From assembly GCA_903878475.1 (NCBI GenBank), contig CAIRHQ010000004.1:3477-67476 (forward strand): a DNA stretch of 64,000 nt. The letters are read 5' to 3'. A program made the position numbers and the translations under genes. Positions 2,235 to 10,255 of this stretch are shown here, one piece after another (position 1 is the first letter of the stretch; each line of letters opens with the position of its first letter). The notes beneath the pieces are model-generated. The model worked only from the letters and a program-made list of their open reading frames with translations. It was not told the DNA's origin and did no database searches. This stretch comes from an uncultured Bacteroidota bacterium (GTDB lineage: Bacteria; Bacteroidota; Bacteroidia; Chitinophagales; Chitinophagaceae).

Positions 2235-3569
2235 TTAAAGTTGTTTGATGACTATTTTCACTTTGTCGATCCTGTTTTTATTGATGGCCAGGGGAATAAA
2301 GGTAAAATCGCCGCTCACCACAGCTTCTTCAATCTGTGGAAATTCTCCGGCGATCTCAAGCACCAGTCCGGCAAGTGAATCACTATCGCCCCGGATGCCA
2401 TCAAAAGTATCTTTCGGCAATTGCATTTGTTTACATACATCATTGATCATCGTCCTGCCTTCAAAAATATAGGTATGGTCATCAATTTTTTTATTGCTGC
2501 TTTCTTCGTCATCGAATTCATCCTTGATCTCTCCAATAATTTCTTCCATCACATCTTCCAGGGTAACAATGCCTGAAGTACCACCAAATTCATCTACCAC
2601 AACGGCAAAGTGTATACGCCTGTTCCTGAATTCCTGTAAAAGATCTTCAATGAGTTTTTGTTCGTGTACAAAATAGGGTTGGCGCATGAGGGCATGCCAG
2701 TCGTAGTCGGCCCCTTCATCCAGGTGCGGAAGCATGTCCTTGGTATGCAGAATACCCACTACTTCATCAAGACTGCTCCGGTAAACGGGTAGCCGTGAAT
2801 AATGGAGGGCTTCTACTTTCTTTACGGTATCAGAAAAATTATAACTAAAATCGATGCCGCTTACATCGAGCCGGGTCCGCATTACCTGCTTTACGGTGGT
2901 ATCGCCAAATTTCCGGATCCCTTTTAAGATCTGTTTTTCTTCGCTGGTGGCTTCATGATCGGGCAGCAGGTCAATGGCATAATCGAGGTGGGTACTATCC
3001 ATTGTGGATGAATTCTCGGAGGAGAATTTTTTCTCGATCTTATCACTATACCTGACCATTCTTTTGCTGAACCGGTAAAAGAGGCTGTTAAATATTTCTA
3101 CCGCCAGGGAGGCTGTTGCAGCAAACCAGATCTTATGATGGGTGGCCCATACTTTCGGGAGTACTTCACCAAACAGCAGCAACAAAAAGCTGACGGCACC
3201 TACCTTGATCAGGAATACCGGCCAGAACTGCAGGTTGAAACTACTGATCCAACTATCGATCAGGATATTTGAAATTAAGATGATGCCGATATTGACAAAA
3301 CTGTTGGTGATGAGCATGGCGGCCAACAGTGTTTTGGGTTGATCAAGCAAACTCACTATCCGTCTGTATGCTGGTTTCTGCTTGGTCTTCAGCATGTTCA
3401 GGTCTTTGTAAGTAAGCGAAAAAAAAGCTACTTCTGAACCAGCGAATAAGAAAGAGAGGCAAAAAAGCAACACTATCAGAAAGATAAGTACAGTGGTAGC
3501 AGCAGGCGTGATGGCCAAAACAGAAAATGTGGGAAGCACAAAAAAATCTACAGCCGAATGATAATCCAA
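2235..3569 (-). CDS. gldE: Gliding motility-associated CBS/CorC-HlyC membrane protein GldE
   Basis: DUF21-type N-terminus (AGSEVAFFSL, FGEVLPK), tandem CBS domains (VVDEFGGTSGIVTLED), C-terminal CorC domain; ssb-gldE-gldD synteny. Confidence 0.88.
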   Translation of the reverse strand: MDYHSAVDFFVLPTFSVLAITPAATTVLIFLIVLLFCLSFLFAGSEVAFFSLTYKDLNMLKTKQKPAYRRIVSLLDQPKTLLAAMLITNSFVNIGIILISNILIDSWISSFNLQFWPVFLIKVGAVSFLLLLFGEVLPKVWATHHKIWFAATASLAVEIFNSLFYRFSKRMVRYSDKIEKKFSSENSSTMDSTHLDYAIDLLPDHEATSEEKQILKGIRKFGDTTVKQVMRTRLDVSGIDFSYNFSDTVKKVEALHYSRLPVYRSSLDEVVGILHTKDMLPHLDEGADYDWHALMRQPYFVHEQKLIEDLLQEFRNRRIHFAVVVDEFGGTSGIVTLEDVMEEIIGEIKDEFDDEESSNKKIDDHTYIFEGRTMINDVCKQMQLPKDTFDGIRGDSDSLAGLVLEIAGEFPQIEEAVVSGDFTFIPLAINKNRIDKVKIVIKQL

Positions 3570-3629
3570 AACAAATGATTTATGTAAAAAATGCTACCCT
3601 ACTTACAGCAGAGTGTTCCTGAATTTATT

Positions 3630-4058
3630 TTAATGCTCAGATTGCAATTGATCATTTCCTTCATCAACAGGGGGATTCCCATTTCCTTCAATTCCCTCAT
3701 TACCCTGTATTGTTTGTCCCCCATCGGTTCGTTTATCCAGCATGATGAGGTTGTCTCCTACAATTTCAGTGGCAAACTTTTTATGCCCCTCCTTATCTTC
3801 CCAGCTGCGTGTCTTCAGGTGTCCTTCAACATATACTAAACTTCCCTTGTGCAGGTATTTCTGAGCCAGTTCTGCTAGTCCACGCCACAACACCACCGTA
3901 TGCCATTCGGTTTGTGCGATCAGTTTGCCGGTTCGGTCCTTATACGATTCGGTAGTGGCCAATGAAAACTTAGCCACCGGGATATTTCCTTCCAATAATT
4001 GAATATCCGGATCCTTTCCCAAATTGCCGATCAGCATTACCCTGTTTACGCCTCTCAT
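3630..4058 (-). CDS. ssb: Single-stranded DNA-binding protein
   Basis: VNRVMLIGNLGKDP, TEWHTVVLW and KGSLVYVEG OB-fold signatures. Confidence 0.95.
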   Translation of the reverse strand: MRGVNRVMLIGNLGKDPDIQLLEGNIPVAKFSLATTESYKDRTGKLIAQTEWHTVVLWRGLAELAQKYLHKGSLVYVEGHLKTRSWEDKEGHKKFATEIVGDNLIMLDKRTDGGQTIQGNEGIEGNGNPPVDEGNDQLQSEH

Positions 4059-9874: not shown

Positions 9875-9986
9875 TGTATTTTGTTTACTATGTTAAAAAC
9901 GAACAAGGAACCGGGATACATGAATCTTGAAAAGTATTCAATATTCCTAGTTCCTTGCAGGGAATCCCTGTTCGGGATCCAGTTTG

Positions 9987-10068
9987 TGCGGATGATAGGG
10001 GTCGAACCTACATGCCTTACGGCGCCAGATCCTAAGTCTGGTGCGTCTGCCAATTTCGCCACATCCGC
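9987..10068 (-). tRNA. tRNA-Leu(UAG)
   Basis: Minus strand folds as GCGGATG acceptor / CATCCGC-A, GCG/CGC D-stem, CCAGA-CTTAGGA-TCTGG anticodon arm, long variable arm and GTAGG-TTCGACC-CCTAT T-arm; CCA not encoded. Confidence 0.96.
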
Positions 10069-10184
10069 TGGTGCGTTTGCTCTCGCTCAAAGCGAGACCA
10101 CATCCGCTGGTGCGTTTGCTCTCGCCCAAGGCGAGACCACATTCGCTGTTGCGTCAGTCGCTTCAACATGAAGCTACATCTGCT
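10059..10184 (-). repeat. Tandem 37-39 nt repeats made of degenerate tRNA-Leu 5'-half copies with an internal hairpin
   Basis: Units at 10059-10097 and 10098-10136 differ at 2 positions; a third diverged unit starts at 10137. Each contains (minus strand) GCGGATGTGG-hairpin-CAAACGCACCAG. Confidence 0.85.
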
Positions 10185-10193
10185 AAAGGGCTG

Positions 10194-10201
10194 CAAAAGT
10201 A
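10194..10201 (-). promoter_or_regulatory. -7 promoter element TACTTTTG for the tRNA-Leu (and possibly tig) transcript
   Basis: Exact TAnnTTTG on the minus strand just upstream of the repeat array. Confidence 0.65.
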
Positions 10202-10255
10202 AGGCATTTCATCAATACCGAAAACAGATTTGTTTCCGTAAATTCGTAACAACAG

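Follow-up and report, generated by a model that had tools for sequence, protein, structure and literature searches.

Hairpin-bearing copies of the tRNA 5' part in the leader of a Bacteroidota tRNA-Leu(TAG) gene: a conserved, dispensable element with a possible role in cis

Why would the 5' leader of a transfer RNA (tRNA) gene carry copies of the first part of that same tRNA, each with a hairpin in the place of the D-arm region? This question is raised by the tRNA-Leu(TAG) gene in a stretch of 64,000 nucleotides (nt) from an uncultured Bacteroidota bacterium of the Chitinophagaceae (contig CAIRHQ010000004.1 of assembly GCA_903878475.1), referred to here as the window, where three such units lie head-to-tail between a presumed promoter and the tRNA. 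Based on comparison with related genomes, the array is read as a slippage-amplified relative, lacking an open reading frame (ORF), of the hairpin-patched tRNA remnants that accompany small GIY-YIG nuclease genes, kept by selection as a dispensable part of the leader which most likely acts in cis on the folding or 5' processing of the precursor. A probability of roughly 0.45 is given to this reading. It builds on the architecture of the array, its recurrence as a family, structural covariation, purifying selection, lability and pairing potential, all of which the comparisons below demonstrate. Genomes are designated by G numbers, G000 being the window's own (2.85-Mb assembly, 245 contigs, 30 tRNAs), while C and L numbers stand for contigs and loci. 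The following features make up the locus:

9986..10068, minus strand: tRNA-Leu(TAG), class II, without encoded CCA; the working gene (ARAGORN; Rfam tRNA, 55.7 bits)
10069..10107, minus strand: proximal leader unit, 39 nt, composed of tRNA positions 1-10, hairpin and tRNA positions 19-30, its final G doubling as the tRNA start (sequence, Tandem Repeats Finder, pattern match and cross-species alignment)
10081..10097, minus strand: proximal hairpin TCTCGCT-TTG-AGCGAGA, 7 base pairs (bp), 3-nt loop
10108..10146, minus strand: middle leader unit, 39 nt, with 3 differences from the proximal unit, 2 of which form a compensatory stem pair
10120..10136, minus strand: middle hairpin TCTCGCC-TTG-GGCGAGA
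10147..10183, minus strand: distal, promoter-proximal, decayed unit, 37 nt, composed of GCAGATGTAG, hairpin and CGACTGACGCAACA
10161..10173, minus strand: distal hairpin CTTCA-TGT-TGAAG, 5 bp
10194..10201, minus strand: presumed Bacteroidota-type -7 promoter box TACTTTTG (motif assigned from established knowledge of Bacteroidota promoters)

A single tRNA was called in the window by ARAGORN. Read along the minus strand, the box TACTTTTG (10201 to 10194), which we take to be the -7 element, is followed by ten bases, the decayed unit, the two intact units and the tRNA. Each unit consists of tRNA positions 1-10, a hairpin replacing positions 11-18, and positions 19-30/31; the whole array measures 115 nt and its units are bounded by 10-nt direct repeats. 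Tandem Repeats Finder reported a period of 39 with 2.5 copies and 92% matches (10059-10154), and a 40-nt unit pattern with at most 3 mismatches matched twice, against 0 matches in 100 shuffles. An initial annotation of this DNA had already described the units as mimics of the tRNA 5' part with a hairpin for the D-arm region, all of them situated between the -7 promoter and the tRNA, and both statements hold. It had also counted only two differences between the intact copies, compensating each other. The compensatory C-G/T-A stem pair was confirmed, but a third difference, G/A at unit position 4, has to be added; two were counted because in the plus-strand register used at the time only the compensatory pair falls inside both copies. 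The first unit begins 10 nt downstream of the -7 box, and in unit-free congeners it is the tRNA itself that begins 10-11 nt past this box (15 nt in G260). A scan of the leader against Rfam 15 returned the tRNA only, the other match (E = 0.46) being far under the gathering score. A coding function was considered as well, since in G000 an ATG within each unit is in frame across the array as far as the TAG anticodon. It was rejected because most unit lengths in congeners (39-45 nt) are not divisible by three, the stems covary and the loops drift.

The array of the window belongs to a family. In 339 genomes of the genus, a strict pattern search found a unit directly upstream of tRNA-Leu(TAG) in 18, the reversed control giving 0. 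Variant units were present in 7 more genomes, 6 of them recognised in the relA-proximal regions of 20 further close relatives and one (G289) carrying a three-unit array. At least 24 congeners have 1-3 units at this tRNA; a metagenome scan added one single-unit locus on one contig. The family consensus runs GCGGATGTGG, a 7-bp stem with a 3-nt loop and GCAGACGCACCAG; 0-5 nt come after it, except in one subclade with about 22 nt. Its stems are mostly TCCCGCC/GGCGGGA, also TCTCGCC/GGCGAGA, plus a few unrelated ones. Structural selection on the hairpin, as proposed in the initial annotation, was borne out by an alignment of 17 units. Pairing was kept in 93.3% of cells, compared with 43-56% for slid partners, three pairs showed double-sided changes, and the covariation score was reached by 0 of 500 shuffles; these statistics are influenced by the relatedness of the sequences.

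To judge conservation, the units were compared with fourfold degenerate (4-fold) sites of the adjacent relA. Among unit-bearing species, identity amounted to 0.42 at the 4-fold sites, 0.44 in the hairpin loop, 0.86 in the stem, 0.92 in the 5' segment and 0.89 in the 3' segment. For saturated pairs of G066, G255, G258, G259 and G329 (4-fold identity 0.32-0.40), the 52-nt leader without the loop remained 84-98% identical, or 92-98% with G259 left out; a range of 81-98% was also recorded for the single-unit leader in saturated pairs. This conserved leader includes the spacer CCACGA, which is not derived from the tRNA and marks common descent. As a local control, distant pairs gave 0.90 for the leader unit, 0.89 for the adjoining promoter-bearing segment, 0.95 for the tRNA and 0.60 for the tRNA trailer. 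Because the kept units are conserved while neutral sites are saturated, they must be under purifying selection where they are retained. Judged by these alignments, the single-unit module is not junk, being about as conserved as the adjoining promoter region.

Copy number, on the other hand, turns over. In every multi-unit array, preservation is best in the unit next to the tRNA, and units nearer the promoter are decayed, the distal unit being the decayed one also in G130, G140, G212 and G226; G071 and G339 contain duplicate units without any difference. The proximal 5' segment usually tracks changes of the tRNA acceptor (G7 to A7 in G140, G188 and G226; G1 to C1 in G172, G271 and G289), with distal units retaining the older acceptor state where the proximal unit changed. 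In G011 and G212 the proximal 5' segment did not track the change. This pattern of tracking proximal and conservative distal units is what would be expected if the 10-nt direct repeats (positions 1-10 of unit and of tRNA) exchanged unequally, and such exchange likewise accounts for the three copies in G000 against one in its sister G255. Within the window, one copy would have become three by slippage or unequal exchange between the repeats GCGGATGTGG. Slippage cannot, however, account for the fact that stem, 3' segment and spacer are conserved.

What the units could do is suggested by predicted folds. For the G000 precursor, the minimum-energy fold paired the 3' acceptor strand with the proximal mimic instead of the true 5' end, with a native acceptor pairing probability of 0.53 in the thermodynamic fold. 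The consensus fold of 11 single-unit leaders plus tRNA likewise put the mimic on this strand. The pairing between mimic and 3' acceptor strand was possible in 76 of 77 cells, including an A-U double change in G188 and a G.U pair in G011. The earlier idea that the decoy acceptor strand could pair with the real 3' strand is thus supported at the level of models: the pairing is kept across species and competes with the native strand in folds. In silico, the probability of native acceptor pairing was 0.99 without a unit, 0.31 with the real single unit, 0.06 with a plain duplicate of positions 1-31, and 0.00 when the hairpin was disrupted. With one, two and three units of G000 it came to 0.23, 0.58 and 0.62, respectively. 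These values suggest that the 5' segment would be a real competitor for the acceptor strand and that the hairpin and the extra copies would soften the competition; they are hints only, because tertiary structure and folding order are ignored. In the mechanism proposed here, the tRNA's own promoter would transcribe the units as a 5' leader, which ribonuclease P (RNase P) would remove. The units would act on the RNA in cis, the 5' segment serving as a decoy that captures the tRNA 3' acceptor strand and the hairpin, standing in for the D-arm, limiting this competition. Decoy and hairpin could together set the rate or the amount of correctly folded pre-tRNA arriving at RNase P, and a change in copy number would shift the setting.

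The design is not restricted to tRNA-Leu. The stem TCTCGCY/RGCGAGA occurs five times in the G000 assembly and all five copies lie inside partial tRNA copies, with Leu and the tRNA-Trp leader contributing two each and a pseudo-tRNA-Asp the fifth. It is the sole recurring stem among the 33 perfect GC-rich hairpins of G000 with 7 bp and a 3-nt loop. When all 30 tRNAs of G000 were scanned, further hairpin-patched partial copies were found at Met, Ala, Phe, Val, Lys and Ser, many of them using a second palindrome, TCCCGA..TCGGGA, which is present in 45 copies genome-wide compared with 0-3 for control stems. The well-assembled congener G066 has the leader design at Leu(TAG), Trp, Pro(CGG) and Cys(GCA) among its 38 tRNAs, and the Trp version was found in 6 of the 339 genomes. 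These occurrences at other tRNAs, the link to small GIY-YIG genes, and the conservation in some congeners with loss in others go beyond what had been noted before for this locus.

Some further observations concern these copies. An orthologous locus with a pseudo-tRNA-Asp and a GIY-YIG gene (L148, G066:C1:1450490 versus G000:C41:6990) has a TCTCGCC hairpin in both genomes, which occupies the D-loop of the G066 copy but the anticodon/variable region of the G000 copy; the patch therefore seems to have been replaced or re-inserted over time. Upstream of tuf, at a contig end (L028, G000:C41:40590-40788), there is a tandem array with a period of about 94 nt and at least 3 copies of tRNA-length units. 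In these units the D-arm and T-arm are intact, the anticodon arm reads TCCCGA-TTGAAA-TCGGGA and the 5' acceptor strand is mismatched; ARAGORN calls none of them, the contig ends within the array, and G066 has a normal Thr-Tyr-Gly-Thr cluster at this position. The 45 sites of the second palindrome in G000 (perfect form TCCCGA-WAGCW-TCGGGA, e.g. G000:C5:11273, C112:26782 and C228:3490) are usually the core of longer inverted repeats made of heptad-like CCAACTG/CCAACCT runs, which looks like a family resembling miniature inverted-repeat transposable elements (MITEs).

For several of these tRNAs, the partial copies are associated with small GIY-YIG nuclease genes. Among the eight PF01541 matches of G000, six are small ORFs, five of which adjoin tRNA genes or pseudo-tRNAs (Lys, Val, Phe, Pro, Asp); the remaining one lies at a contig end where no tRNA was called. 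The ORFs have about 80-130 amino acids (aa) and are essentially the catalytic domain alone. At Asp, a broken GIY-YIG ORF is situated between the real tRNA and the pseudo-tRNA bearing the Leu-type hairpin. The Lys-locus ORF has relatives at 80 loci (L035-L114), mostly of Chitinophagaceae metagenome-assembled genomes (MAGs) and of Cyclobacteriaceae. Enough upstream DNA was available at 66 loci, and at 63 of these the ORF lay 30-50 nt past a tRNA on the same strand, nearly always Lys(TTT). The 3' end of the 80-aa Lys-type ORF enters a pseudo-tRNA-Lys, in which TCCCGA-loop-TCGGGA nearly always forms the anticodon arm, with a second TCCCGA-type palindrome in the T-arm at several loci; the stop codon is often within the D-arm of the pseudo-tRNA. 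In a congener (G258:C4:534787-535678), three 89-aa GIY-YIG ORFs stand in tandem with a 338-bp period, which looks like segmental amplification of a nuclease cassette.

The Leu array shares with such cassette remnants the truncated 5' tRNA copy between promoter and tRNA, and the GC-rich hairpin that replaces an arm and recurs at several tRNA loci of G000. The small GIY-YIG ORF is lacking at Leu and present at Asp, Lys, Val, Phe and Pro of G000. The unit would have originated, like the copies beside small GIY-YIG genes at the other tRNAs, as a partial 5' duplication of the tRNA gene.

Several observations weigh against the reading of the array as a selected, cis-acting relative of these remnants. 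A locus with a nuclease ORF between mimic and tRNA was not found for Leu(TAG), so that a cassette origin is argued by analogy with Asp and the other tRNAs. On contig C4 there was no PF01541 match, and in 9875-10255 no such ORF; about 45 Leu(TAG) loci yielded no ORF-bearing intermediate in a search that was not exhaustive, and three relA loci without an adjacent tRNA had other genes (G291, G076) or a longer array (G289), again with no ORF-bearing intermediate. G289 moreover has three units together with few GIY-YIG genes. On a relA tree of 41 taxa, a partial sampling of the genus, no fewer than 9 gains or losses are required to explain where the unit is present or absent; well-supported branches force 6 of these, and species without a unit are nested among those that carry one. 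A first tree of 24 taxa, with one clade and no losses, had suggested retention in every clade member, which the 41-taxon sampling overturned. The module is dispensable, because it was lost several times. Stem mismatches, compared as G.U versus A.C, are mixed with respect to the strand that the hairpin serves (sense-strand A.C in G001 and G332, sense-strand U.G in G289 and G207). The folds ignore tertiary contacts, modifications and co-transcriptional order, and the native acceptor stem may win outright in vivo. Finally, a purely harmful decoy should lose its tRNA-like segments, yet these are conserved, which fits a positive role without naming which, or whether it is exerted as RNA or as DNA.

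The frequent gains and losses could instead point to a neutral or selfish scar, left by a partial tRNA duplication or by a mobile cassette and expanded or contracted by slippage with no role for the cell. The decay of distal units is in line with this, as are the variant units with other hairpins or insertion points (G271 after position 14, G078, G090) and the 10-nt direct repeats, which ease both duplication and precise deletion; slippage turnover alone can also explain why the proximal 5' segment tracks the tRNA. A scar would nevertheless not be expected to keep stems, 3' segment and the spacer CCACGA, which have no template elsewhere in the genome, 84-98% identical where 4-fold sites have fallen to 0.32-0.40 and trailers to 0.60, nor to let the loop alone drift at the neutral rate. 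On balance this explanation is judged unlikely.

Selection on the units might also operate at the level of DNA, in connection with the GIY-YIG nucleases. A unit could mark an 'occupied' or altered tRNA 5' junction that is spared cutting or re-invasion by nucleases whose genes lie elsewhere in the genome or population, or the hairpin could be a structure recognised by the nuclease. In a comparison of ten related genomes, which are not independent samples, 9-14 GIY-YIG matches were counted in four of the five unit-bearing congeners checked and 4-5 in unit-free ones. The presence of the Leu-type hairpin at the nuclease-linked Asp locus, the near uniformity of the stem within a genome, and the size of the ORFs, whose catalytic domain alone fits recognition of structure rather than of sequence, all agree with such a role. 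The downstream tRNA, however, keeps its full sequence, so that it would gain no protection from the mere disruption of a target site, and immunity would select against deletion of the unit and not obviously for its interior sequence. With G289 as an exception among the unit-bearing congeners, a function of this kind is distinctly improbable.

As a third alternative, the leader freed by RNase P could be stabilised by its hairpin and act in trans as a small RNA through its two single-stranded tRNA-like segments. In E. coli, spacer-derived by-products of tRNA processing have roles in trans, and the arrangement of a stable hairpin between two conserved single-stranded segments would suit such a molecule. 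No complementary target besides the tRNA itself was identified and no Rfam family matched, and good conservation, being confined to the tRNA-proximal unit, points to a role in cis. The prospects of this explanation are poor.

The initial annotation had further considered the array as a record of repeated insertions of a mobile hairpin similar to repetitive extragenic palindromic (REP) sequences, each insertion into the leader DNA being independent. Related palindromes are indeed dispersed: YCYCGCC-NNN-GGCGRGA was counted 7-15 times in four of five congeners and twice in G012 (control 0), TCCCGA..TCGGGA is abundant in G000, and the hairpin differs in place between the Asp pseudo-tRNAs of G000 and G066. 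The repeats at Leu, however, are whole 39-nt units in register that copy one another and are bounded by direct repeats, not hairpins alone, and no GTAG-type REP head is present. In congeners, the hairpin's sequence is also found as an ordinary terminator followed by a T-run (L137, reverse strand), and an apparent P3 hairpin of RNase P RNA in G130 (L145, G130:C7:57331; TCCCGCC-TTT-GGCGGGA) is of the same sequence class; the hairpin thus behaves as a preferred stable stem and not as a transposing unit. The Y1 transposase gene of G000 (Y1_Tnp, G000:C144:3017-3361) is flanked by CACCCCTTCGGGGT repeats, a palindrome different from that of the leader, with at least five CACCCCTTCGGGGT hairpin copies at 3440-3880. 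It looks like a classical REP-associated tyrosine transposase (RAYT) gene of the IS200/RAYT-like type that has a REP family of its own, separate from the tRNA-linked hairpins. Independent insertions were accordingly abandoned as a very unlikely origin. That the array is an assembly artefact, a mis-joined or over-expanded repeat, is hardly credible even for a genome as fragmented as G000 (245 contigs), given that its 115 nt are shorter than a typical short read, that the near-identical units differ at 3 sites, and that the same architecture is found in more than 20 independent assemblies, some with megabase contigs, and on one metagenome contig.

Comparison with known systems showed partial likeness in each case. 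In the attachment (att) site duplications made by genomic islands and prophages, the 3' part of a tRNA is copied, and the copies flank kilobases of DNA with an integrase and are not in tandem. As there, a tRNA fragment at Leu is duplicated beside the working gene, presumably as by-product of a mobile element that uses the tRNA gene as its site; unlike there, it is the 5' part, repeated head-to-tail within 115 nt, with a hairpin substitution and no integrase nearby. The repeats of E. coli tyrT (rtT region) lie downstream of the tRNA, copy its 3' end over 178 bp and have no hairpin substitution. They resemble the Leu array as tandem repeats that contain part of the neighbouring tRNA and share its transcript, as is presumably also the case at Leu, and differ from it in that the Leu repeats lie upstream and copy the 5' end. 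REP sequences and bacterial interspersed mosaic elements (BIMEs) combine a GTAG-type head with an imperfect palindrome, are present in tens to hundreds of extragenic copies, and are mobilised by RAYT (Y1) transposases. Similar to these are the short GC-rich hairpins with stems kept by compensatory change, variable loops and lineage-typical sequence. The Leu hairpin differs in having 17 nt and no GTAG head, and its 5 genome copies are all in tRNA mimics.

The working analogue of the proposed mechanism is a synthetic RNase P riboswitch, in which the structure of the pre-tRNA leader can gate cleavage by RNase P (PMC7897497). In both cases the structure of the 5' leader would decide on processing. 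The riboswitch is, however, engineered and ligand-dependent and sequesters the single-stranded leader next to the cleavage site, whereas the Leu module is natural, would compete for the acceptor 3' strand and implies no ligand.

Closest on the side of origin is SegB of phages T4 and T6, a free-standing GIY-YIG homing endonuclease encoded in the phage tRNA gene cluster (PMC2330249), which drives unstable tandem amplification of a segment comprising tRNA and segB via microhomology (PMC13096335). Both systems have a small GIY-YIG gene beside tRNA genes, tandem amplification of a tRNA locus via short homology, and unstable copy number; at the Leu array this corresponds to the 10-nt junction homology and to a copy number that varies between species, in a unit without a whole tRNA or nuclease gene. 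The SegB system is of phage origin with a 718-bp repeat that holds the whole tRNA and the nuclease gene, and no hairpin-patched partial tRNA copies have been reported for it. The Leu repeat is part of a bacterial pre-tRNA leader; it measures 39 nt, contains no nuclease gene and is conserved between species. Each of these published systems lacks at least one defining feature of the Leu array, and no description of tRNA 5'-half mimics in leaders, or of GIY-YIG cassettes with hairpin-patched pseudo-tRNAs, was found in the literature.

The array is flanked by genes for trigger factor and for a RelA/SpoT homologue. Between the divergent relA and tRNA-Leu promoters (window 10219-10246) there is a near-palindrome, GGAAACAAATCTGTTTTC, and within the same interval, 10 nt ahead of the relA start, a TAAATTCG box. 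Both are about 89% conserved among species with saturated neutral sites and may represent a shared operator and the relA promoter.

In practical terms, these units and related ones cause short-read assemblies to break at tRNA loci and mislead tRNA finders, with consequences for the annotation of Bacteroidota MAGs. For the biology of these bacteria, a wider and more tentative proposal is that the units represent a natural class of cis-acting 'self-decoys' in bacterial pre-tRNA leaders. Such a class, which is possible rather than probable, would give particular single-copy tRNAs (Leu-UAG, Trp, Pro-CGG, Cys, Met) a heritable control of their maturation that can be adjusted quickly, tuned by the hairpin that replaces the D-arm and by a slippage-prone copy number, and would have been domesticated from the remnants of GIY-YIG cassettes. 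Mobile-element debris in tRNA genes can come under purifying selection and does not just decay; what is new here is the evidence for selection on units that have no ORF. In the usual view, the tRNA supply of bacteria is set by promoter and gene copy number. If the proposed action is true, a conserved leader element imitating the 5' half of its own tRNA would constitute a new layer of control on tRNA maturation, whose strength could be changed by repeat slippage.

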